64,000 nt of DNA. It comes from Escherichia phage PECP20. The position numbers and the translations under genes were made by a program. Position 1 is the stretch's first letter; each line of letters opens with the position of its first letter. Location: the sequence record OQ873415.1; one strand, written 5' to 3'. Of this stretch, positions 11,176 through 64,000 are shown piece after piece. Under the pieces are notes generated by a model. That model made no database searches. It was given only the letters and a program-made list of their open reading frames with translations, and was not told the origin of the DNA.

Positions 11176-11835
11176 TTAACCTCGATTCATAAATGCATTA
11201 AATATTTGGTCATCAACAGAAATTTCTAATTCGGCTTCAATTGCTTCAGCCTTTTCTTCAGGTGGTAATTCGTATCCACACACTACAATTTTTTCATCGA
11301 TATCAAAATATACAGAAGCAATACGATTAATGTTACTTTCAGTTAAGTCTAAATCAACATCAACATCTTTTTGACCTACACTTAAAGGATAACTAATACG
11401 GGTTATTTTATTATCTTTAACAAAGAGTCCACCAACATACTCTGTACTACGTTTGAAGTTTACACGTTTCCGAATTGAAAGATATGATACATCTTTACCG
11501 TGAGCTCGGCTCATAGGACATAATGAATAGCTAGAATAAGAGATGTCAAATCCTACACCTTCAATATGAGCCAACGTGTCATGAGTAAACCAATTATAAT
11601 CATATGCCAAATCCATTAAATTATAATATGTGAAAGGCACTGGATTAACATCATATGTTGTACCTTTAAAATCAGCCCAGGCAACGATTTCGTTATCTTT
11701 AACAATTACAAAAATTACACCAATATGGTATCCGTTATTATTTTCATTCGGCGTTATATTATAACATTGTGCATTAGGAAATTTACCATATTTAAATGGT
11801 GCGTTTTTGTGCATGTAATAAATCATATTATTCAC
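11176..11835 (-). CDS. hypothetical protein (219 aa)
   Basis: ORF; no motif recognised. Confidence 0.6.
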   Translation of the reverse strand: MNNMIYYMHKNAPFKYGKFPNAQCYNITPNENNNGYHIGVIFVIVKDNEIVAWADFKGTTYDVNPVPFTYYNLMDLAYDYNWFTHDTLAHIEGVGFDISYSSYSLCPMSRAHGKDVSYLSIRKRVNFKRSTEYVGGLFVKDNKITRISYPLSVGQKDVDVDLDLTESNINRIASVYFDIDEKIVVCGYELPPEEKAEAIEAELEISVDDQIFNAFMNRG

Positions 11836-12121: not shown

Positions 12122-12150
12122 TTTAACTCCTTAGTTGATTTGATAGGACT

Positions 12151-12180
12151 ACTATACTATAGACCATCTATAATGTAAAC
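12151..12180 (-). promoter_or_regulatory. early-type promoter (GTTTAC-N18-TATAGT) upstream of lipoprotein gene
   Basis: Plus-strand actata...gtaaac; contains gataggact half-palindrome. Confidence 0.4.
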
Positions 12181-19426: not shown

Positions 19427-19666
19427 TTATTTGAATTTCTTGACAATGTTGATATAACGTAAAGCTTCAGAATCTATACTTCCAAGAACACTATGAAGGA
19501 ATGCATCAGTGTAGTATTCCAATTGAACAGGTTCTTTAATCACTTTAGCCGCTTTGGTTTCAAACAGGCCCATAAGGGCCTTTTTAAGAATTTGTTCGTT
19601 AGTGTTCAGTTTCATAGTCAAAATCTCTTCGTTAAGTTTATAATTAAAACTTTTTCTAGAAATCAT
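19427..19666 (-). CDS. hypothetical protein (79 aa)
   Basis: ORF; 4-nt overlap with upstream gene. Confidence 0.5.
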   Translation of the reverse strand: MISRKSFNYKLNEEILTMKLNTNEQILKKALMGLFETKAAKVIKEPVQLEYYTDAFLHSVLGSIDSEALRYINIVKKFK

Positions 19667-20823
19667 TCCGGGTACCTCAAAGCGTCATCAGAGTTAGTTA
19701 TATCAATAATAGATATGGAGTTTTCTGCTAACCCGTTTTTAGATAATTGACGTTTATAATACCTTTCACAATATGTACACGTTGACCCACAGATTTCATT
19801 AGCACAATCAAAATCTGGATGTCTGAACCACCTTTTTTCTAAAAAGCCATCTAACAAAGAGGTTTCAATATTTACTGTATGTGAAAACTCAGTCTCATTT
19901 TCAAGAGTGAAAATAGTCTCTAAAGGCTTCCACAGTTCTAACAAATTACCTTCAAACTTTTCAGAAGCGTATGCTTCAAGAACTTTCAAAATGTAGTCTG
20001 TGCTACCTGTACGTCCTGAAACTTTGAATTGAGTGATACCAATATCATTATAAAGTTTCAAATCTTGAGGACGAACAAAACGAGTTCTCAACCAGTTAAA
20101 TGGGTCTGTATCACGAGCTTTAATACAGTGCTGCATAGGATATCCATTTAAGGATTTAGCATCATCAGCGGTAACATCAGTACTATGGAAAATATAGCAA
20201 GAGTCACGATAACTACAATGTGTTGTATACCCTTTACCAGCATTAGAACAGAACTCATTTACAAGAACTTCAAATATTATATTGTTCTTATTGCAAAACT
20301 CTGCTGCACGCTTCAGGAAAGAAACTGAACGGTTCTTATGAATTCCGCAACAGACCTTTTTGATGTTATATTGGTCATGTAAGTATTTGATTTGAGTTAC
20401 CGCATCGACATGTAGAATTGTTGAAACTTCAATCTCAATATCTTTATTGACTTCACGAACAATTTCCATAACAACAGGGTTAGCGATAGTAATACGCCAT
20501 ACGCCTATTGACCAAAGATACTGAACATAATCCTGAATAGCTTTCTTCTTCCACTCAACTAGTTCTCTTTTTGAACCAGGATTTATCGTGTTGAGTGTAT
20601 AGTTAAAGCAAATACCTAATTCGTTACAACGTTTAACGTAGTCTTCTAACATCTTTTTGTCAACGTCAGGAAGCCTAAAATCAGGTCTGGCTGCTACAAA
20701 AGCCATTTCTCTTGTAGAGCCATATACTTCGTTTATCAAGCTATTAGGATAGGTTTTATTGAGCTCTACGATTTTATCAAGAAGAGCTAAATCAAAATTC
20801 GTTCCGATTTTAAAAGTATTCAT
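19663..20823 (-). CDS. hypothetical Cys-rich protein, possible Fe-S enzyme
   Basis: 386 aa; C-terminal C-x4-C-x3-C-x-Y-C cluster plus scattered Cys; family not assigned. Confidence 0.7.
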   Translation of the reverse strand: MNTFKIGTNFDLALLDKIVELNKTYPNSLINEVYGSTREMAFVAARPDFRLPDVDKKMLEDYVKRCNELGICFNYTLNTINPGSKRELVEWKKKAIQDYVQYLWSIGVWRITIANPVVMEIVREVNKDIEIEVSTILHVDAVTQIKYLHDQYNIKKVCCGIHKNRSVSFLKRAAEFCNKNNIIFEVLVNEFCSNAGKGYTTHCSYRDSCYIFHSTDVTADDAKSLNGYPMQHCIKARDTDPFNWLRTRFVRPQDLKLYNDIGITQFKVSGRTGSTDYILKVLEAYASEKFEGNLLELWKPLETIFTLENETEFSHTVNIETSLLDGFLEKRWFRHPDFDCANEICGSTCTYCERYYKRQLSKNGLAENSISIIDITNSDDALRYPE

Positions 20824-20879: not shown

Positions 20880-21281
20880 TTATAGATTTGGTTTATATGA
20901 TTTAAATGTTTCGAATTCGCCTTTATTCATAAGAGCTTTGAATTCGTCAGGACGCATAGCTTTGTCGTCGATAATCCAATCATATACTGGTTTATGTGTT
21001 AGCAAATTATGGTACTTCAAACCAATGTTTTCCAAGTTCTGAATCAGACTTGGGAGAATGTCAATTGCTATACGACCAGGACCTACCGACTTCATACCAC
21101 GGGCAGTGTAAAGCGTTATGGTATGCCCTGCATCATACAGGGCATTAATGGCAGACACCATTTCGACGTCTGGTTTGAAGTTCACGTAATCACGATTGTT
21201 ATTCCACTCTGTTATACAATCATCGACATCAAAACAAAGATTAAGCATGTTTTCTACACGGTGCATTAGATTCGTTCCCAT
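20880..21281 (-). CDS. HAD-superfamily phosphatase (sugar-phosphate phosphatase-like)
   Basis: 133 aa; N-terminal FDVDDCIT (DxD nucleophile motif). Confidence 0.65.
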   Translation of the reverse strand: MGTNLMHRVENMLNLCFDVDDCITEWNNNRDYVNFKPDVEMVSAINALYDAGHTITLYTARGMKSVGPGRIAIDILPSLIQNLENIGLKYHNLLTHKPVYDWIIDDKAMRPDEFKALMNKGEFETFKSYKPNL

Positions 21282-22951
21282 TGATGAGTGATATCGCCGC
21301 CGATTGGACGATAGGAAACACCAGTTTCTTTATCAGTTAGTACCCATTTACCAGGATTTTTTGTAATCAGAGTAGCCGTTACAGGTTCTGCTACGTCATA
21401 ACTAATAGAGCCGTCTTGAAGTACACGGCCCATGTTACGTAATTGCTTAGTCAGAAGTTCCATACCTTTATAATATGCGGCAACCGCTTTAAGTGGATTA
21501 TTCTTGAAATAACCACCTAATGCAATCCAGATAATTGCTACTGCCAAATGATGATACTCGTTAAACGAACTCATCTTTCCATATTTGTAAACTAATGGAT
21601 TGATGTTAATAGTCAAATTACAAGTTGTTTCATCAATAGTAAACTGACCCCAGGTCGGATTAGCATTGAATTCATCATAACCTGAAACAGCATAAAGCAC
21701 TTTAGCTTCATCATACAATTTTGGCCCGTAAATCTTGGTTTCACCAAAATATCCACGAGGGTCGATAAACTTGACTTCGCCGTTATCGGTAATCATAGTA
21801 TTACTGAAGTTCGGGTCACCATGAATAACAGAGTACTGTCCCTGAGAACGGTTATGATAACGAATAAGATGTTCTAAAGCTTGTTTCAACATTGGCTTCA
21901 GACGTCCAATCTTAGTGTAGTTCACATGTGTGATTTTACCAAATGAATCAATCAATGGCTGAATGCTTTCACAACGATCAATAACTTTCGTATAGAACTC
22001 TTTAGTGAAATCACGGCGAACAGTTTCAGGACTTACAAAATAAGTGTCCGTGCTGAATTTCAGTGCATCTAAAATTGCATCAACAATTTGTGGACGAGCA
22101 AGACTTGATTTGGATTTAATATATTCAAATGCCGGCTTACCTTTAATACGTTCCATTTCAAAATTATTTTCATTTACCGAAACTAACTGAGGAACTGAAT
22201 CTGATTTCACTTTCAAATACCATGAAATCTCATCTTTTTGAAGAGCTCGACCTTGTTCGGTTAACGCGAATTTAGTTACAGTTTCTTCGCCAATTTCAAC
22301 TGCATTAAAACTACGATTCAGTTCACGAACTTCATGAGCCTTTTCAAGTTTAGGCATATCACCTAAATCAATTAGATTCATAAGCTCTGATTTATTGAAT
22401 GCACTGCCGTAAAGGAATTCTACGAAATCACGACCTTTGCAGTATTCGTGAATTTCCTCATCAGTAGAACCCATGTAGAATTCCCAGTCTTTGAACTGAT
22501 AAATTCCTACAACATTACCACCTGTTGAACCTACGTTAGTGATATTTTCACCATCGAAATTATATCGACATTCATCACCCTTAACATAGATTGCGTTAAC
22601 ATTCCAAGACCATGAACCAAAGTCAGGAATAATATCACACCAGTTAACAATTACGTTATGGCCATCTAAATCTTTGTATAATTTAGCAAGAGCATAAGCA
22701 GAACCATACGCTTCATCAACTGTACGAATAGTCACATTGAACCCTTCTTGCTCGCAATAAGCTCGAACAGTTTCAGCAAATTTTGAATGAACTACTACAA
22801 TAATTTCATCTGCGCCAAGGTCAGAATAAATTGTATACAAATTGCTCAGAATAGTGTCTTGTTTATAGTTAACAAGCACCTTAGGAATATGGTGAGTAAT
22901 TGGATATAAACGAGTTGCTAATCCAGCACCAAGAATAACAGCTTTTTTCAT
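21266..22951 (-). CDS. bifunctional sugar-1-phosphate nucleotidyltransferase / APH-type sugar kinase
   Basis: 561 aa; N-terminal MKKAVILGAGLATRLYP (RmlA-like); C-terminal HGDPNFSN...IDPRG (aminoglycoside/choline-kinase-like). Confidence 0.8.
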   Translation of the reverse strand: MKKAVILGAGLATRLYPITHHIPKVLVNYKQDTILSNLYTIYSDLGADEIIVVVHSKFAETVRAYCEQEGFNVTIRTVDEAYGSAYALAKLYKDLDGHNVIVNWCDIIPDFGSWSWNVNAIYVKGDECRYNFDGENITNVGSTGGNVVGIYQFKDWEFYMGSTDEEIHEYCKGRDFVEFLYGSAFNKSELMNLIDLGDMPKLEKAHEVRELNRSFNAVEIGEETVTKFALTEQGRALQKDEISWYLKVKSDSVPQLVSVNENNFEMERIKGKPAFEYIKSKSSLARPQIVDAILDALKFSTDTYFVSPETVRRDFTKEFYTKVIDRCESIQPLIDSFGKITHVNYTKIGRLKPMLKQALEHLIRYHNRSQGQYSVIHGDPNFSNTMITDNGEVKFIDPRGYFGETKIYGPKLYDEAKVLYAVSGYDEFNANPTWGQFTIDETTCNLTININPLVYKYGKMSSFNEYHHLAVAIIWIALGGYFKNNPLKAVAAYYKGMELLTKQLRNMGRVLQDGSISYDVAEPVTATLITKNPGKWVLTDKETGVSYRPIGGDITHQWERI

Positions 22952-44874: not shown

Positions 44875-44904
44875 ATTATACTCCAACCATCCTTGGTTGT
44901 ACAT
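44875..44904 (-). promoter_or_regulatory. early-type promoter (GTACAA variant of the same cassette)
   Basis: Plus-strand attatactccaaccatccttggttgtacat. Confidence 0.4.
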
Positions 44905-45899
44905 CATTCCTTAAGAAGTTTTACTACTTGAATAAGATTAGCTCGTTCTGTTTTATTTTTACCATTTAAGCCTGCTAATCGTGAGATTTCATCGTCAGTC
45001 TGTTGAATAGTTACATTAAGTTCGTTAATCAAAGCTTCAAAGTATTTGATTTGCTCAGCATGTTTTGATTCAAATTTCTGAACCGGAATAACGTCTTGGT
45101 TCAGTTCATCAATAAGGTCTTTAAGAGCATCTTCTTGGTTGATATCGTATTCAACTTCTTTTATTTCTTCAACGAACTCGTTTTTATATCTAACATCTTT
45201 TAGTCCTGGTGCCGGTCCTGAAATCTCTTCTTTAAGAGTACAAACATACCCAATACGGTATTGGATACCGTCTCGCTTGATATCAACTTCGTCGATAAAT
45301 CCGCAATGTTTAAGACCAGAGCCGATTAGGTCAAAATATCCTTGACGTCGTCCTTCAAACGTTACACGAACTACTAAGACAGTTTTGCCAGCGACCTTTT
45401 GAAGCTCACATTTATAAAAGTTCGTTGAACCTGAATAACGTGGATGAGTTTTAAAGTTCATCTGACGATCTAGGCCCATTTGTAAACGTGCTGTTACGGC
45501 CATAAAACGTGTTTGGTTCTCGTTAAGATGAGCAACAATCCATTTCAAAGGCATTTTACCCTGTTCACGACCGAACAAATCAGTACATCCTAGATTACGC
45601 AGGATGTTGTTAGAGTTAATCATCGACAGAACGTTAAGTTTATTCAGCGCGCTGAAGATTCCATCAGCCATTGATTTTCCATAACCTTTACACGCTTTAA
45701 TAAGTGCTCGCGGCAGATTAGTATAGATTTCAGACGGCATATGAAAATCAAATTTACTAGTCAGTAATTGATGAACTTGGATAGCAATTTGCTCGTAATT
45801 AAGTGCTCTGCGATCATTATGGTCTTTAAACCACACTTTAATCTGTGAAGCACATAAACCGTTAATTTCATGTTTTACCGCATCAGATGTAATGCTCAT
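44904..45899 (-). CDS. hypothetical protein with C-terminal coiled coil (331 aa)
   Basis: ORF. Confidence 0.7.
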   Translation of the reverse strand: MSITSDAVKHEINGLCASQIKVWFKDHNDRRALNYEQIAIQVHQLLTSKFDFHMPSEIYTNLPRALIKACKGYGKSMADGIFSALNKLNVLSMINSNNILRNLGCTDLFGREQGKMPLKWIVAHLNENQTRFMAVTARLQMGLDRQMNFKTHPRYSGSTNFYKCELQKVAGKTVLVVRVTFEGRRQGYFDLIGSGLKHCGFIDEVDIKRDGIQYRIGYVCTLKEEISGPAPGLKDVRYKNEFVEEIKEVEYDINQEDALKDLIDELNQDVIPVQKFESKHAEQIKYFEALINELNVTIQQTDDEISRLAGLNGKNKTERANLIQVVKLLKE

Positions 45900-48364: not shown

Positions 48365-49354
48365 TTATTTATAGTAAGAATTATGATTTTCGAGATAGAC
48401 TTGCTCAAGGAAATCATCCCAGAAACTCATATCTACTTTTTGTTGCATACCATTCTTGGCAGCTTGTTCTGACGCATGTTCAACTTGGTCAACGATATCT
48501 TCTAGGAATTCTTGTACAGTTTTAAACGTATGTTTACCAAGCTTAACATCGAGAATAAATGGAGCATCCTGAAGTGGGTAAACCAGGTCGCCGGTTTTGT
48601 AAATTTCCAATAATTGAAGTCCACCACGACATGCATGACTCAATGCTTTCCAGTCAATACCTTCGTTAGCTTCTGCTTTACGAGCACGTTCACCATAGTT
48701 CTCTTCCAGTTTAACCAGGATAGCATTGAACTCTTTATTGGTTAACGTGTCTTGGAATTTACGGTCTAACAGACTATAGAATGTTTGCTTACCTGTTTTC
48801 TCGTTTTCGGTTTCAACCCATGAAGCAAATTCACCTACAGGTAGAACATTCTTCATATGTGATAAACGAATTACTGCACCATTATCAAAGTATTGTCCCC
48901 ATTCATTAGAACGTTTAAGGGCTTGACGAAGAACAGCCAGTCGAGAACCCTTGACACCGTATTTAGAAGCTTGCTTACGGACGTACCCTAAATAAGATTT
49001 CATGTTAGTGGTATAGAAACGAGACCTGTTATCTTGAATATACTTCCATACATCAGGCAAATCAGATTTAACTACTAGACTTGGTGGAGTATGAAGCATA
49101 TCTAATGCGACGGTTTCACCATCTGCAGCTAGTTTAAAGAAATATTTGAGACTATATAACTCATGGTCTACGTCGTCTTTTGTGTTCTTAGAAGATGTGT
49201 TATTCGTGTTCTTGCTCATATGTTCTTTAACGTTACCGGTCAAAATATCACGAGCATGAGGGACATAAATTTCTTTAAAATCGACGTCAGATTCAGGAGT
49301 AGACGTTCCATAAAGGTGGCTACCAAAGTAGCTTTTCATAATTGTTTTCATCAT
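48365..49354 (-). CDS. nucleotidyltransferase-fold protein (Pol-beta superfamily signature)
   Basis: 329 aa; N-terminal FGSHLYGTSTPESDVDF fits the G[GS]-x9-13-D-x-[DE] minimal NTase motif. Confidence 0.7.
   Translation of the reverse strand: MMKTIMKSYFGSHLYGTSTPESDVDFKEIYVPHARDILTGNVKEHMSKNTNNTSSKNTKDDVDHELYSLKYFFKLAADGETVALDMLHTPPSLVVKSDLPDVWKYIQDNRSRFYTTNMKSYLGYVRKQASKYGVKGSRLAVLRQALKRSNEWGQYFDNGAVIRLSHMKNVLPVGEFASWVETENEKTGKQTFYSLLDRKFQDTLTNKEFNAILVKLEENYGERARKAEANEGIDWKALSHACRGGLQLLEIYKTGDLVYPLQDAPFILDVKLGKHTFKTVQEFLEDIVDQVEHASEQAAKNGMQQKVDMSFWDDFLEQVYLENHNSYYK
48366..48373 (-). promoter_or_regulatory. T4 late promoter core TATAAATA upstream of 48145..48333
   Basis: Plus-strand tatttata about 35 nt upstream of the ATG. 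Confidence 0.45.
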
Positions 49355-50545: not shown

Positions 50546-50681
50546 TTTACCATACTCGTTTCAATAAGATTCACTATGCCGTTTACCATGTTATAAGTAA
50601 ACATCGGATAATTGTATTGTACTACAACATAAGCGATAAGCAAAAGTTTCATTTTGTTCTCCGTTCGTTTTGGTAGGACTA

Positions 50682-50710
50682 CTATAACATAGTCCTACCA
50701 AGATGTAAAC
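50682..50710 (-). promoter_or_regulatory. early-type promoter with -10 inside a 9-bp-arm palindrome
   Basis: GTTTAC-N17-TTATAG; plus-strand ggtaggact-N10-agtcctacc. Confidence 0.35.
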
Positions 50711-59045: not shown

Positions 59046-59286
59046 ATCGGTCCCATGATTTGGCCATCAATTCGGACATAAATTCTTCAATGCGCGTTTC
59101 TTTAGATGGACTTTCACTATTAGAGACCGCAAGTTTGTAATCTGCAATAGGACAGAACATATCAAGGTCCATATTAAGATCGTCTTTGATTTTTTCTTCT
59201 GACACATCTTTATCATACGTGTACAGATAACTATCGCATGATTCTGATTTAATGTAAATTGCTATACTCATCTCAAATTCCTGCAT
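59035..59286 (-). CDS. hypothetical acidic protein (83 aa)
   Basis: ORF. Confidence 0.5.
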   Translation of the reverse strand: MQEFEMSIAIYIKSESCDSYLYTYDKDVSEEKIKDDLNMDLDMFCPIADYKLAVSNSESPSKETRIEEFMSELMAKSWDRYDE

Positions 59287-59759
59287 TCGGTAATAAAACG
59301 TTCAACTTCGTTATTCTTGGCCTTTATCTTGTCTTTACGTTCCTGTAAACTACTTTTAACAAGATTAATAATGATGGCGGCGGTACCGCCGCCAATGATG
59401 CCACCAACAACACTTACGATACTAGATGCTAATAAGATAGCAATAATATCAACAAAACCGAAAGAACTCACCTTAGTACTGAAAAACCATACCGACGGTA
59501 CAAATATAATCCATCCTGTTATCCATTGGCACTTATTGAAAAACTTTTCAAGCTCAGCTTGAGTTGTTCGTATTACTTCATCGATAGGTTGATATCCATT
59601 AATGTATCTGTTCACGATAATACCTGCTGGCTGGTCGATTTTAAATTCTTGGCAAATACGTTTCACTAAGTAGGATGGACATCCTGTCCAATCCACTGAA
59701 TAGTACGAAATACCTTCGTTGCCATCGTCTATATTAGACCAATATGTTTTGTTAATCAT
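59268..59759 (-). CDS. membrane protein with C-terminal ERFITECR motif (163 aa)
   Basis: Central TM helices; C-terminal motif shared with 60447..60752 and 63113..63472. Confidence 0.6.
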   Translation of the reverse strand: MINKTYWSNIDDGNEGISYYSVDWTGCPSYLVKRICQEFKIDQPAGIIVNRYINGYQPIDEVIRTTQAELEKFFNKCQWITGWIIFVPSVWFFSTKVSSFGFVDIIAILLASSIVSVVGGIIGGGTAAIIINLVKSSLQERKDKIKAKNNEVERFITECRNLR

Positions 59760-60446: not shown

Positions 60447-60752
60447 TTATTTTCCTCGACATTCTTTAATGAAATTTTCTAGATTGGTAGATTCAATAGC
60501 TTTTTTACGAGCTTCTGCGTGTTCTTCTTCAGACAATTTACATTTATAATTGACCCAGACGTTATGGTCGAAACTAGTCGTGGCATATAATAACAATGCT
60601 CCAACGAATAGCAAAAACGGCGATAAGAATACAAAACCAGGAACACCATCCATACTGTAAGCCTTTTGTAATACTGCAACAGAAAGAGCTGCGTAAAAAA
60701 GTGATACAAATATTGTTAAAAGACCAATTCGGTTGGTTTCGCCTAATTTCAT
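60447..60752 (-). CDS. membrane protein with C-terminal ENFIKECR motif (101 aa)
   Basis: Two TM helices; C-terminus LENFIKECRGK. Confidence 0.6.
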   Translation of the reverse strand: MKLGETNRIGLLTIFVSLFYAALSVAVLQKAYSMDGVPGFVFLSPFLLFVGALLLYATTSFDHNVWVNYKCKLSEEEHAEARKKAIESTNLENFIKECRGK

Positions 60753-61029: not shown

Positions 61030-61091
61030 TCATTTGTTTTGATAGGTCTATAGTATCAACAACTACAGACCTTGTAAACTGTTTTGTGAAA

Positions 61092-62048
61092 TTATTTGAA
61101 AGGTTTTACCATATGAAAGTTTTGTTTGAAACGCTTGACGTAATCGTCGTGTCCTAAGCTTTGGTACATACTTACTACTTTGTTATAATTTTCCCAAGCG
61201 AACTCACGGAACCATCCTGATGTGATTGATGTACAGACCTTTTCAAGGGCCATCATAAAACTATCACGTGGATGGATTTCAAAGTTATTAGGAATCTGAG
61301 AACGTTCTAACGCTAGTACACATGATTCTTCGTATACGCCGGCCAATTTGACCATTTCTGGTAATGATTCGAACTTCTCGCGTGAGGTCATGACTTCAGA
61401 ACCATCTTTCATATAAAATGTATACGCTGGACGGTCTGTTAGTGCAATGGCTTCATGAATAGTATCATGGTCATATGTATAGATGTCATCTTTAAAGAAC
61501 GCACTTTTAGAAGTGTCAAGAACTGGGTGAGCATAATTCAAGGTTTCTTTCTGGCGTTTCAGCATAATTTCAGTAAGTTCATCGTTCAGTGTAACACCTT
61601 TACCACGAAGATACTGAATATGGTTCATAGTCTTTAAAAAGAATGGATTATTTTTCTTGAAACGATGAGACATCTTAATTGCAAGACATATCTCAGGAGT
61701 TGCCCAGTAAAACCCGTTCAAACGGTCTTTAGTCAAATTTTTCTTGGCGTATTTTAAAAGGTCATAAGAAGACGTGAAATCTTCAGGAGTGAGTTCACCG
61801 ACTAGTTCGCGAACGTTAGTGATAGCCGGAACGATGTATGCTTCAAAATGAGTTTCGCGTCCATTATGGAAGCATTTGAAAACTTGGACATCAGGGTTAT
61901 CTTGGTGAACATATACACCCATCATTTGATTTTTGAATGCATTCCAAGAACCTTGGTCCGCAATAAAGTCCCAATCACTATTTTTAATAGCGCTAGAATC
62001 AATAAGACCGTGATAGTGAAGTGCACGAGAACCAATAACTAACATCAT
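61092..62048 (-). CDS. hypothetical protein, possible nucleotidyltransferase-like N-terminus (318 aa)
   Basis: N-terminal VIGSRALHYHG...SDWDF loosely resembles GS...D-x-D nucleotidyltransferase signature; weak. Confidence 0.65.
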   Translation of the reverse strand: MMLVIGSRALHYHGLIDSSAIKNSDWDFIADQGSWNAFKNQMMGVYVHQDNPDVQVFKCFHNGRETHFEAYIVPAITNVRELVGELTPEDFTSSYDLLKYAKKNLTKDRLNGFYWATPEICLAIKMSHRFKKNNPFFLKTMNHIQYLRGKGVTLNDELTEIMLKRQKETLNYAHPVLDTSKSAFFKDDIYTYDHDTIHEAIALTDRPAYTFYMKDGSEVMTSREKFESLPEMVKLAGVYEESCVLALERSQIPNNFEIHPRDSFMMALEKVCTSITSGWFREFAWENYNKVVSMYQSLGHDDYVKRFKQNFHMVKPFK

Positions 62049-62076
62049 AATATTTTCCTCGGATTAATTCATTAAC

Positions 62077-62328
62077 TTAAATTTCACGACATGCGATATT
62101 ATATTCATCCCAGAGGTCATCATGTGAAGCCTCTACCAATGGAACGATTGTACCGTTTATGTCTTCATTATAAGGGCAAATTGTACAGTGCGCATCTTCG
62201 AATCGGATGCCTTTGTGTTCAGATTTTTTATAACGCATATCGAATATCTTTGCAAACTTTTCACGAGTAATGGTTTTACCAACCACTTTGGTTCCGATAC
62301 TTTCGTAATAAATCATTGTGGACTCCAT
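62077..62328 (-). CDS. Cys/His-containing small protein (83 aa)
   Basis: ORF preceded by promoter cassette at 62334-62374. Confidence 0.55.
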   Translation of the reverse strand: MESTMIYYESIGTKVVGKTITREKFAKIFDMRYKKSEHKGIRFEDAHCTICPYNEDINGTIVPLVEASHDDLWDEYNIACREI

Positions 62329-62378
62329 TTGTTTTGATAGGACTACTATAACATAGCCCTATCTTGTTGTAAACTGTT

Positions 62379-62576
62379 TTAGCAAGAATAACTAGATGAT
62401 ACCCAGCCTTGAACAGTGATACTATTGTGGGATAATGAGATCGCGTCCTGGAGATTCAGACCTGCGTTATCTTCAATCCATAATGTAACTTCTTCGCGTT
62501 CTTCTGCTGCAATTTGGAACAGGTTTTCCAGAGCAGCTACTGCCGTACGTACAGCACAATCTAATTCACGAGACAT
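62379..62576 (-). CDS. small protein ending W-x-SSS-x-x-C (65 aa)
   Basis: C-terminus GWVSSSYSC; tandem paralog family. Confidence 0.5.
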   Translation of the reverse strand: MSRELDCAVRTAVAALENLFQIAAEEREEVTLWIEDNAGLNLQDAISLSHNSITVQGWVSSSYSC

Positions 62577-62585
62577 ATTGTTTCC

Positions 62586-62813
62586 TTAGCAAGACATAGA
62601 GGAAGAGAACCAGAAACCTTTGCCTTCCGGAATTCCATAATCGTTACGGATCCAGCCATATTCATCATATTCTGAACTGGTCGCCGGAATATATCGGTTA
62701 AGTCCTTCAGCATACACATGAAAATACTCGCCGGTTTTATCAGCTAATTGTTGGCCTTCACAGATTAGTGCTCGAATTTGGTCTTCAATTTCTTTAACGG
62801 TTTTAGTGGTCAT
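62586..62813 (-). CDS. small protein ending W-x-SSS-x-x-C (75 aa)
   Basis: C-terminus FWFSSSMSC. Confidence 0.5.
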   Translation of the reverse strand: MTTKTVKEIEDQIRALICEGQQLADKTGEYFHVYAEGLNRYIPATSSEYDEYGWIRNDYGIPEGKGFWFSSSMSC

Positions 62814-62822
62814 TTTATTTCC

Positions 62823-63116
62823 TTAACATATTTGAGAAGAGGAGATCCATACACCGGAAGTAACGATACCATTTTCGTCAACTTCACCGCCATAGTTTTC
62901 AATTTCATCGCGCATCCAGCGACTACATTCATAACCAACAGGATAGTAAGTACGACCTGAACCATATTCACCTACATCAAATGAAACACCATACTTATCT
63001 GCGATAATAGTAGCTTCATTCTCGATATGGTCTTGAGCACGAAGAAGTTTGCTGATTGCTTCTTCTGCAGATTTAGCGTCATTGTATTCAGGGATTACGA
63101 TTTCAATTTTACTCAT
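62823..63116 (-). CDS. small protein ending W-x-SSS-x-x-C (97 aa)
   Basis: C-terminus VWISSSQIC. Confidence 0.5.
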   Translation of the reverse strand: MSKIEIVIPEYNDAKSAEEAISKLLRAQDHIENEATIIADKYGVSFDVGEYGSGRTYYPVGYECSRWMRDEIENYGGEVDENGIVTSGVWISSSQIC

Positions 63117-63472
63117 TTTCTACATTCCTTAATAAAGTTTTCGATTGTTTCATTTTCACGTTTAGCTAGGAGTTCATTATAACTAATCATTTGAGAAGCG
63201 TAAACCTTTTTATTTTTCTTGTTGTGGTTTATAAAATCGTAGTAAAAATAGACTACAGTACAAAATGATGCGATGGATGCAAAGGCTTGGGTATACCGTA
63301 AGTCCTGCCATTGGTCTGTGAATCCACCAGTGTTCCCTATAAATCCTAACACAACGCCGTCAATAAGAAATCCAACTAATCCAAAGGCAAATCCCATGCC
63401 AATACTCATAATAAAAATTAGAATGTTCTCACCAAGAGAAGGCCATACGGTTAAGAGTTGAGGCTTTTGCAT
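63113..63472 (-). CDS. membrane protein with C-terminal ENFIKECR motif (119 aa)
   Basis: TM helices; C-terminus IENFIKECRK. Confidence 0.6.
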   Translation of the reverse strand: MQKPQLLTVWPSLGENILIFIMSIGMGFAFGLVGFLIDGVVLGFIGNTGGFTDQWQDLRYTQAFASIASFCTVVYFYYDFINHNKKNKKVYASQMISYNELLAKRENETIENFIKECRK

Positions 63473-63825
63473 CTTATTTCCTTAACGAATTCCATAGCTT
63501 CTTCATATTCATACTTTTTAACAGCTTCATCATACTGAGCTTGGGCTTTTGCGCACTGAACTTTCCATTCTCTTAATCGGGCTCTGTGATGACGGCCTTG
63601 GTGCCAATATCCTACCCAATTAATAGGCATTAATAAAAACGGTACAATAAGTGGTGCGACGAACATTAATGAAAATGCTGCATCAGACGATATAACTTCA
63701 CTAGAATCTAAAACAGCTCCTATAATCATAAAGATTAAAAATGCTAAAGCTAAAATAGGACCAAATAATACTTCATACGGGATTAATTTACGTTTGTATT
63801 CGTAGGCCCAGGGCTTACTTGGCAT
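63451..63825 (-). CDS. membrane protein (124 aa)
   Basis: ATG at 63825 (MPSKPWAY) chosen; overlaps the stop of the partial gene upstream; track start 63876. Confidence 0.5.
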   Translation of the reverse strand: MPSKPWAYEYKRKLIPYEVLFGPILALAFLIFMIIGAVLDSSEVISSDAAFSLMFVAPLIVPFLLMPINWVGYWHQGRHHRARLREWKVQCAKAQAQYDEAVKKYEYEEAMEFVKEIRCKSLNS

Positions 63826-64000
63826 GTATAGGGTTGGCTTTGACATATTCTCTACATTCCATAATAAATTGCTCAAGGATTAAATTGTTAGTGAAATTAG
63901 GACTAACAACCATAGTTTCATAAAGCGCATCAATAGCACTTAAAGCATCAACTCTTTTAAGCAAAGGCTTGCCTTCATACATAGTTTCAGAATCGATGAT
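63815..64000 (-). CDS. hypothetical protein, partial (C-terminal 61 codons; N-terminus beyond window end), FIMECR motif
   Basis: Open frame from window edge to TAA at 63817-63815; C-terminus ...EQFIMECREYVKANPIHAK resembles the ENFIKECR family. Confidence 0.4.
   Translation of the reverse strand: MIDSETMYEGKPLLKRVDALSAIDALYETMVVSPNFTNNLILEQFIMECREYVKANPIHAK

Follow-up and report, generated by a model that had tools for sequence, protein, structure and literature searches.

What does the protein encoded at positions 61092..62048 of the minus strand in Escherichia phage PECP20 (sequence record OQ873415.1) do, and on what does it act? At this place the window, that is the whole stretch of 64,000 nucleotides that was analysed, contains an ATG-start open reading frame (ORF) of 318 amino acids (aa), taken from a program-made ORF list whose coordinates include the stop codon. 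An earlier note had remarked that the N-terminus of its product loosely recalls the GS...D-x-D signature of nucleotidyltransferases (NTases). Our analysis favours, with a probability of about 0.72, a two-domain enzyme from a large, virus-restricted and uncharacterised family, in which a minimal Pol-beta-type NTase head is accompanied by a module of small proteins with a constant C-terminal tail. The parts of the gene to which the following paragraphs refer are these:

61092..62048, minus strand: coding sequence, RB69ORF134c homologue of a Mosigvirus, with DUF7277 and DUF7275, predicted Pol-beta-superfamily nucleotidyltransferase (ORF list, Pfam, PHROG)
61713..62048, minus strand: N-terminal alpha/beta domain, aa 1-112, predicted minimal nucleotidyltransferase head (AlphaFold, Foldseek)
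62028..62033, minus strand: codons of G6-S7, putative hG[GS] motif where strand 1 passes into the following helix (sequence and conservation)
61968..61976, minus strand: codons of D25-W26-D27, predicted metal-binding motif [DE]h[DE] where strand 2 begins (sequence and conservation)
61842..61844, minus strand: codon of E69, candidate third carboxylate (h[DE]h) in strand 64-73 (conservation and model strand)
61095..61703, minus strand: C-terminal all-helical domain, aa 116-318, DUF7275 (helices H118-127 through H302-309 in the model)

The peptide that had attracted attention, VIGSRALHYHGLIDSSAIKNSDWDF, corresponds exactly to residues 4-28 of a genuine ORF, and the spacer between G6-S7 and D25-x-D27 measures 17 residues, as had been counted, and is longer than the canonical 9-13. 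By itself, the GS...DxD pattern is weak evidence and lies within chance: GS-x(9-20)-DxD is found in 4 of the 77 non-overlapping ORFs of at least 100 aa in the window and in 3.3% of the shuffles of the target protein, and the stricter form hG[GS]..[DE]h[DE]h in 1.8% of these shuffles. The conservation of the motif residues was determined on 116 full-length homologues, in which G6, S7, D25, D27 and E69 are the sole positions among residues 1-115 to be conserved at 97% or more. When 150 cluster representatives were considered, at most 50% identical to each other and 36-56% identical to the query, G6 and D27 were present in 100% of the sequences, D25 in 99% (the remainder being E) and S7 in 97% (the remainder mostly G), and position 69 was occupied by E in 89% and by D in 10%. 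The rest of the N-terminal domain is poorly conserved, with a mean column conservation of 0.52, and the spacer between GS and DxD varies across the family, being mostly 15-19 residues long. This near-invariant set appears to be the hG[GS] / [DE]h[DE]h / h[DE]h signature of Pol-beta-type NTases. The doubt raised by the long spacer is answered by the AbiEii/DUF1814 NTase, whose motif is hG[GS]x15DhD and in which mutation of these residues abolishes both GTP binding and toxicity (PMC3985639).

The residues of the signature also fall in the expected places of the predicted structure. The full-length AlphaFold2 model, obtained from a 35-sequence alignment, has a predicted local distance difference test score (pLDDT) of 90.7 and a predicted template modelling score (pTM) of 0.86, and a second AlphaFold model, limited to residues 1-185 and obtained from 57 diverse sequences, has a pLDDT of 88.4. 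In both models I5-G6-S7 follows strand 2-5 and opens helix 6/7-12, D25-W-D27-F lies at the start of strand 26-31, and helix 32-41 and three more strands follow; the modelled elements are strand 2-5, helix 7-12, strand 26-31, helix 32-41, and strands 45-47, 54-61 and 64-73. F68-E69-A70 is located within strand 64-73, with E or D at position 69 in 99% of the representatives. As modelled, this order of elements would be the canonical arrangement of Pol-beta NTases.

When the full model was compared with the PDB by Foldseek, the NTase-like structure 5uvd ranked first (E-value 2.5e-3) and was accompanied by the toxin MenT1 (8an4, 3.4e-3), both with a probability of 1.0; the superposition with MenT1 gave a template modelling (TM) score of 0.48-0.50, normalised to MenT1. 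Cid1 and CCA enzymes came after them, and NTases accounted for 22 of the top 50 matches. With the cropped model, the top 12 matches were all NTases of the Pol-beta superfamily (OAS1, OASL, TM1012, Cid1, ANT(2'')-Ia and CCA enzymes), with Pol X, Pol beta and poly(A) polymerases at lower ranks, and ANT(2'')-Ia was matched with TM scores of 0.47/0.50 and a probability of 0.97. Taken over 5uvd, MenT1, OAS1, TM1012 and ANT(2''), the probabilities range from 0.84 to 1.0 and the E-values from 2.5e-3 to 4e-2. An NTase fold, whose absence from structure prediction the earlier note had named as the outcome that would refute its suggestion, was therefore predicted by two models and recovered by Foldseek. 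With structural support of moderate strength, we regard the fold assignment as well supported, but not proven.

The protein belongs to a family that is both large and peculiar in its distribution. Both Pfam gathering thresholds are exceeded, in the order DUF7277 at the N-terminus (aa 2-101; 9e-28, 97.2 bits with respect to a cut-off of 27 bits) and DUF7275 at the C-terminus (aa 120-305; 3.2e-79, 265.6 bits with respect to 27 bits), both families being of unknown function, and PHROG 2141 is matched over the full length at 1.7e-150. The homologue search retrieved 2246 relatives after clustering at 90%, all containing DUF7277 and/or DUF7275, and an exhaustive profile search gave 1601 clusters at 50% identity. 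The family is present in 734 of 50,697 phage records, corresponding to about 1.4% of sequenced phage genomes, with hosts that include Escherichia, Acinetobacter, Aeromonas, Pseudomonas, Vibrio, Klebsiella, Gordonia and Streptomyces; it is also found in jumbo phages and in 148-kb gut phages, and a structure search of BFVD added members from the giant viruses Sylvanvirus and Satyrvirus (TM score 0.69-0.71). A scan of 185,579 species-representative genomes, made with two highly conserved peptide patterns that divergent cellular members could escape, yielded 5 relatives only, all on metagenome-assembled contigs. The family is thus virus-restricted and essentially absent from cellular genomes. A few GenBank records label homologues as 'nucleotidyltransferase' (Pseudomonas phage REC gp163 and the Acinetobacter phages Lazarus and Konradin), and in Pfam these proteins match only the two DUFs.

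Two side observations concern the members of the family. One of the five cellular relatives, at locus L010 (8544..12208, contig JAGVDA010000266.1, from a Thermosynechococcus metagenome-assembled genome), has, within 6 kb, a DUF7275 gene, a tail ORF of the kind described below, a predicted transfer-messenger RNA and 12 transfer RNA (tRNA) genes; this has the appearance of phage sequence that was binned with a bacterial genome, and the other four give the same impression. In addition, some phages encode the DUF7277 head and the DUF7275 helical domain as separate proteins (BFVD A0A142IE91, 117 aa; J7I4W1, 168 aa; A0A7T5QU77, 173 aa), which is consistent with two independently folding domains.

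The C-terminal helical domain is the best-conserved part of the protein, and K125, H128, K139, H194, D195, H198, E240, E241, E248, R249 and R281 are invariant in all the 150 representatives. In the Foldseek comparison of the full model with the PDB, no solved structure fits this domain better than at an E-value of about 0.5. Given the analogy with the MenT/AbiEii toxins and with ANT(2'')-Ia, its most likely role would be to provide the opposite wall of the active-site cleft and to choose the acceptor.

A clue to what this acceptor might be came from the neighbouring genes. Clustering of the ORFs around family members revealed small acidic proteins of 60-160 aa, encoded upstream on the same strand, which end in G-x-W-x-S-S-S-x-x-C, with the stop codon directly behind the cysteine. 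Each locus has 1-3 of them in tandem, and their N-terminal parts vary while the tail is constant. In the window, such tail ORFs are found only beside the target, in three copies:

62379..62576, minus strand: tail protein 1, 65 aa, ending ...GWVSSSYSC, phrog_4882 (ORF list, tail scan)
62586..62813, minus strand: tail protein 2, 75 aa, ending ...FWFSSSMSC, phrog_899 (ORF list, tail scan, alignment)
62823..63116, minus strand: tail protein 3, 97 aa, ending ...VWISSSQIC, phrog_899 (ORF list, tail scan, alignment)

Tail protein 3 carries the core of the family, namely a helix, ADxxGxxF and YGxGxTYYPxG, and then GxWxSSSxxC. Judging from this common series of helix, ADxxGxxF, YGxGxTYYPxG and tail, the tail proteins appear to be a true family; neither a Pfam family nor a PDB match was found for them. 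All six serine codons and both cysteine codons are in use in the tail, and this codon diversity indicates that selection acts on the protein; for the same reason, we discarded the idea that the motif is a DNA-level element.

The linkage was quantified in a neighbourhood survey of 92 loci, which represent 30 lineage groups at less than 65% target identity, by re-counting unfiltered ORFs with the relaxed pattern W-x(0-3)-SS-x(0-3)-C-stop. In 83 of the 92 loci, at least one tail ORF is encoded on the strand of the enzyme no more than 2.6 kb upstream; leaving out three of the nine exceptions, whose contigs break off less than 720 bp upstream, the count is 83 of 89 informative loci. The two 1-kb bins directly upstream of the enzyme contain 215 of the 234 ORFs with the tail pattern, as compared to none of the approximately 1400 ORFs located 1-6 kb downstream. 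Tail proteins are found near the enzyme in at least 21 of the 30 lineage groups, and many seemingly tail-less loci were artefacts of ORF filtering or cut contigs (gp28 of PspYZU05, for example, ends in ...SSWVQSSC). The reverse test gave the same result: starting from 93 tail homologues retrieved by profile search, we sampled six on contigs long enough to be judged, the weakest matches included, and all six have a DUF7277/DUF7275 gene 0.1-1.5 kb downstream on the same strand. This near-obligate linkage suggests that the enzyme and the upstream tail proteins are a conserved module and an unstudied enzyme-partner system.

Putting these elements together, the N-terminal 110 residues or so would form the minimal Pol-beta-type NTase head, in which G6-S7 would hold the phosphates of a nucleoside triphosphate (NTP) and two Mg2+ ions would be bound by D25, D27 and E69. 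A nucleoside monophosphate would then pass from the NTP to an acceptor hydroxyl, with the helical C-terminal domain as the acceptor-side wall of the cleft. This nucleotidyl-transfer chemistry is deduced from the fold and from the invariant residues, and on these grounds the protein is quite likely an active Pol-beta-type NTase. Its gene would be expressed within a short unit bounded by early promoters, in a module with the one to three small acidic tail proteins encoded directly upstream.

The tail linkage is the strongest contextual clue to the acceptor. It may be, and we propose this tentatively, that a serine or the terminal cysteine of the W-x-SSS-x-x-C tail receives the nucleotide, i.e., that the reaction is a protein nucleotidylylation; an enzyme-substrate pair would fit because an invariant tail is paired with an invariant acceptor-side domain. 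A different reading of the same linkage, in which the small proteins regulate the enzyme as in the MenT1-MenA1 pair, would also fit. The enzyme and the tail proteins might even constitute an unrecognised, phage-wide system of post-translational modification in which the NTase nucleotidylylates the tail serine, a proposal that we judge unlikely. In such a system, the nucleotidylylated serine could be a stable protein-nucleotide mark, or activation of the serine could be followed by elimination and formation of a thioether with the terminal cysteine, resembling on small early proteins the chemistry of peptides that are made by the ribosome and modified after translation (RiPPs). For this second route, no supporting gene content was found in the loci.

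Several observations weigh against our interpretation. The tail as acceptor is called into question by distant members of the family, from phages of Gordonia, Streptomyces and roseobacters, in which the catalytic residues and the C-domain invariants are retained and no tail ORF lies upstream, and whose neighbours include tRNAs, a polynucleotide kinase and Rnl2; in six loci of the core family, too, every invariant residue is kept and no tail ORF is found within 6 kb. Moreover, synteny alone cannot distinguish a substrate from a regulator, and an orientation of the C-domain invariants towards the NTase carboxylates is an assumption. As regards the fold, Foldseek gave nothing in the PDB below an E-value of 1e-3 and no TM score above 0.5. 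The Pfam search, carried out on 35 members at E-values up to 10, returned no named NTase family, with sub-threshold traces of Polbeta (0.098), Poly_A_pol_cat (0.11) and DUF4269 (0.25), each in 1 of the 35 members. Finally, no PDB match was obtained by phmmer/hmmsearch or with profiles, and the NCBIfam and PADLOC searches gave nothing beyond the two DUFs.

Among the alternatives, the one that survives best, and that we nevertheless consider rather improbable, makes the protein an RNA 3'-end nucleotidyltransferase with tRNA or another RNA as its substrate; it would repair or tail the tRNAs of phage and host, or else block those of the host. On this view, antitoxin-like regulation, as exerted by the small protein MenA1 on MenT1, would be the role of the small proteins encoded upstream. 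The best structural matches are indeed NTases that polymerise RNA or nucleotides (MenT1, Cid1, CCA enzymes and OAS1), and MenT1 is a bi-lobed NTase with a helical bundle that is neutralised by a small protein (PMC10435456). Several distant lineages also carry RNA-repair or tRNA genes within a few kb of the enzyme: Rnl1 and PNKP in a 341-kb phage, Rnl2 and a metallophosphoesterase in DSS3_PM1, a polynucleotide kinase in Wakanda, and tRNAs in Gordonia phage Cucurbita. However, tRNA genes within 6 kb were found in only 4 of the 30 lineage representatives, which is not significant, and RNA-repair clusters (Rnl1, PNKP, metallophosphoesterase, ligase) in at most 4 of the 30 lineage groups, a weak link as compared to the 21 or more groups with tail proteins.

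The H128...H194-D195-x-x-H198...E240/E241 pattern of the C-terminal domain, which we take to recall loosely the metal sites of HD domains or class-I phosphodiesterases, would also suit an enzyme acting on RNA. HD-type domains accompany NTase domains in the E. coli CCA enzyme and in GlnD, and in GlnD the partner of the NTase is a metal-dependent hydrolase domain with an H...HD motif. Nonetheless, the idea that the C-terminal domain is an HD domain or a phosphodiesterase was set aside except as a remark, as Pfam gave no match to either at E-values up to 10 and no HD structure appeared in the Foldseek top 50; the same Pfam search found no AbiEii or tRNA-NTase match. In addition, motif IV of AbiEii (+DxxD) is absent, D143 being replaced by H in the target phage, and the near absence of the family from cellular genomes argues that this is no classical toxin-antitoxin element.

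It is still less probable that the protein is a small-molecule nucleotidyltransferase, modifying a metabolite, an antibiotic-like compound or a signalling nucleotide, which could, for example, serve to neutralise or use up a signal of host immunity at an early stage of infection. The best global structural likeness, to ANT(2'')-Ia (TM score 0.47/0.50 over 183 columns, probability 0.97), would be in keeping with this function, as would the position of the gene in a unit with early-promoter-like sequences, and the strong conservation of the C-terminal domain across Gram-negative and actinobacterial phages and giant viruses suits a universal small acceptor. Such a function, however, leaves the near-obligate linkage to the tail proteins unexplained, no match to any PADLOC or anti-defence model was found, and the likeness to ANT(2'') is at the level of the fold only (10-11% identity). 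A merely coincidental GS...DxD likeness in a non-enzymatic or unrelated-fold phage protein, already disfavoured and in our opinion very improbable, would accommodate the commonness of the raw motif (4-5 of 77 window ORFs, 2-3% of shuffles), the marginal Foldseek E-values and the profile methods that detect no NTase homology, but not the fact that the five signature residues are the sole invariants of a poorly conserved domain among 150 representatives at no more than 50% identity, fall on the expected structural elements in two models, and go with NTases dominating the structural matches of two independent models.

The preferred assignment, an NTase-headed enzyme with tail-protein partners, also has to be seen in its genomic setting. 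Over the 2-kb stretch around the gene, identity is 100% with Escherichia phage FP43 and 98-99.8% with many phages of the genus Mosigvirus (RB69-like, T4-type). Annotated relatives list the ORF as a 'hypothetical protein', with a remark on its similarity to RB69ORF134c. There the gene is flanked by an e.2-like and an e.3-like gene, and lysozyme e and nudE lie upstream of it. In T4, e.2 directly adjoins e.3, so that, relative to T4, the target sits in an inserted block; a scan of T4 from 10 to 80 kb found neither the DUF7277/DUF7275 enzyme nor a tail ORF. Around the target itself, the following features were recognised:

62056..62060, minus strand: Shine-Dalgarno sequence GAGGA (read directly from the sequence, 62060 to 62056, 7 nt 5' of the ATG at 62048)
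62077..62328, minus strand: ORF of 83 aa, phrog_3723, function unknown, between the upstream cassette and the target (ORF list, PHROG match)
62326..62374, minus strand: T4-early-promoter-like cassette, GTTTACA-N17-TATAGT followed by CCTATCAAAACAAATG, upstream of the 83-aa ORF and the target (promoter scan, 10/12 matches, extended -10)
61031..61079, minus strand: second early-promoter-like cassette with an internal inverted repeat, directly after the stop codon of the target (promoter scan, repeat search)

The pair of cassettes, GTTTACA-N17-TAnnnT...CCTATCAAAACAAATG, flanks the 83-aa ORF and the target, and 0 copies are expected by chance. The 83-aa ORF is probably co-transcribed with the target, and at the cassette at 61031..61079 this unit ends and the next begins; in phage SA79RD, the equivalent position carries an annotated rho-independent terminator. 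From these promoter-like sequences, the target would be expressed early.

Allowing up to 3 mismatches, four copies of the cassette are present in the window, all on the minus strand (12132..12180, 50662..50710, 61031..61079 and 62326..62374), again with 0 expected. Every copy consists of GTTTACA-N17-TAnnnT and then CCTATCAAAACAAATG, with the inverted repeat inside. The repeated cassette resembles the promoter-stem-loop cassettes to which the shuffling of genes in T4-type phages is attributed. A different repetition was noticed in five small ORFs of the minus strand, at 59268..59759, 60447..60752, 63113..63472, 63451..63876 and 63815..63982, which share an ending of the type F-[IV]-x-E-C/I-R (...FITECRNLR, ...FIKECRGK, ...FIKECRK, ...FVKEIRCK and ...FIMECREY); the same endings occur in related loci. 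These ORFs mostly encode predicted membrane proteins of the e.2/e.3/e.4 type, and their common endings may reflect paralogous C-termini or a shared recombination cassette.

The window contains a second protein with which the target was to be compared, encoded at 48365..49354. This ORF matches the Pfam family RlaP (PF10127) at 5.7e-13 (49.6 bits with respect to a cut-off of 23 bits) and PHROG 388, 'nucleotidyltransferase', and it adjoins an AAA protein, as in the T4 pair nrdC.10/nrdC.11, in which nrdC.11 is annotated as 'nucleotidyltransferase'. It is therefore an RlaP nucleotidyltransferase of the T4 nrdC.11 type. As is predicted for the target, RlaP/NrdC.11 belongs to the Pol-beta-type NTases found in T4-type phages, and its N-terminus has a GS...DxD (GSHLYGTSTPESDVD in ORF 48365..49354), whereas its spacer has the canonical length of x11, its C-terminal region is different, its neighbour is the AAA protein NrdC.10, and T4, in which the target is missing, has it. 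The comparison proposed by the earlier note brought out no kinship between the two: no similarity was found by BLASTP or by hhalign with two profiles (probability 0.1, the RlaP profile not being diverse, as the homologue search for 48365..49354 gave only sequences at least 98% identical), and the target does not match PF10127 in the Pfam search of the 35 members. Two genes with an NTase fold do occur in the window, as had been suspected, but they are unrelated Pol-beta-type candidates, and their joint presence is ordinary for an RB69-like, T4-type phage rather than notable.

Some further observations concern other ORFs of the minus strand. A 331-aa ORF at 44904..45899 contains a string resembling hG[GS]..[DE]h[DE]h (IGSGLKHCGFIDEVDI) and has no Pfam match. 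The 561-aa protein encoded at 21266..22951 has an NTP_transferase domain (1.3e-9) of the sugar-nucleotidyltransferase kind, whose fold is unlike that of Pol-beta NTases, together with a weak kinase-like region, and lies near a peptidase U32 homologue (19663..20823); we assume that these two proteins may belong to the DNA sugar-hypermodification pathway of RB69-like phages. Finally, a 219-aa ORF at 11176..11835 corresponds to a known anti-defence gene, with a full-length Pfam match to AdfA, anti-DarT factor A (7.6e-119).

By itself, the gene is one more uncharacterised phage NTase, and the conserved tail-protein module is the part worth following up. Full-text literature searches for DUF7275/DUF7277, RB69ORF134c or the enzyme/tail module found nothing relevant, and the linkage to the tail proteins, which is a new result, does not appear to have been reported. 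The family is large and restricted to viruses and has an intact catalytic signature, and to provide two Pfam DUFs with a fold and a testable partner amounts to a defined experiment. If the tail were the acceptor, this would be a new protein-modification chemistry employed by many large phages in early infection, the stage of host take-over and anti-defence functions.

Among known systems, the MenT/AbiEii enzymes (DUF1814, PF08843), Pol-beta NTases that extend tRNA 3' ends, resemble the target in their bi-lobed architecture, with an N-terminal NTase sheet and a C-terminal helical domain, in the long spacing between motifs I and II (x15 in AbiEii, 15-19 in the target family), and in the small protein gene directly upstream of the enzyme. 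A possible further likeness is a lysine-rich helix directly after the sheet: AbiEii has motif III, defined as KLxAaxxR in the helix after the NTase sheet (PMC3985639), and the target has K125-x3-R129-x2-[KR]132. In the family, this segment reads K125-M-S-H128-R129-x-[KL]-[KR]132, with K125 in 100% and K or R at position 132 in 99% of the sequences, and its likeness to motif III is one of position and charge only. On the other hand, the target has no match to PF08843 at E-values up to 10 among the 35 members, nor to the PADLOC AbiE models at E-values up to 1. The counterpart of AbiEii motif IV (+DxxD) is K139-T-M-x-D143-I, in which D143 is 91% conserved and is H here. The C-terminal domain of about 200 aa has its own invariant set of H, D and E residues, the family is viral rather than cellular, and the upstream proteins are multi-copy, carry the conserved W-x-SSS-x-x-C tail and are unrelated to MenA or AbiEi.

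ANT(2'')-Ia (4wqk, 5cfu) gives the best overall superposition of residues 1-185, over 179-183 columns, and likewise has an NTase head followed by a helical substrate-binding domain. It differs from the target in the lack of any profile match, in its length of 177 aa, to which the target adds about 130 further conserved residues, and in the gene context, which in the target has no tie to antibiotic resistance.

RiPP-type clusters share with our loci the tandem arrangement of variable small ORFs with a constant C-terminal Ser/Cys motif directly upstream of a single conserved enzyme, and lanthionine and aminovinyl-cysteine (AviCys) rings are formed with this spacing, S-x-x-C at the C-terminus. 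Unlike RiPP precursors, the tail proteins are folded-looking and 60-160 aa long rather than short peptides, and no protease, transporter, dehydratase or cyclase gene is conserved near the target loci. A LanC-like zinc site in the C-terminal domain was also considered and discarded: the conserved Cys pair is missing, as C243 is not conserved (Y/C/L/M) and only C272 is. An NTase homologue is nonetheless known to act in such a pathway, PsmN, on the phosphorylated C-terminal serine of the lasso peptide pseudomycoidin (PMC9266682). We treat the resemblance to RiPP systems as purely an analogy.

Enzymes that modify proteins offer a further comparison. GlnD, an NTase with an HD domain, uridylylates PII, MntA AMPylates the HepT toxin, and CitX/MdcG attach a nucleotide-derived prosthetic group to a serine of an acyl carrier protein. 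Homology of these enzymes to the target is not detectable beyond the fold, and the partner of the target belongs to a new, tail-defined family. GlnD, MntA and CitX/MdcG provide the precedent of an NTase-fold enzyme whose acceptor is a side-chain hydroxyl of a small partner encoded in its neighbourhood.

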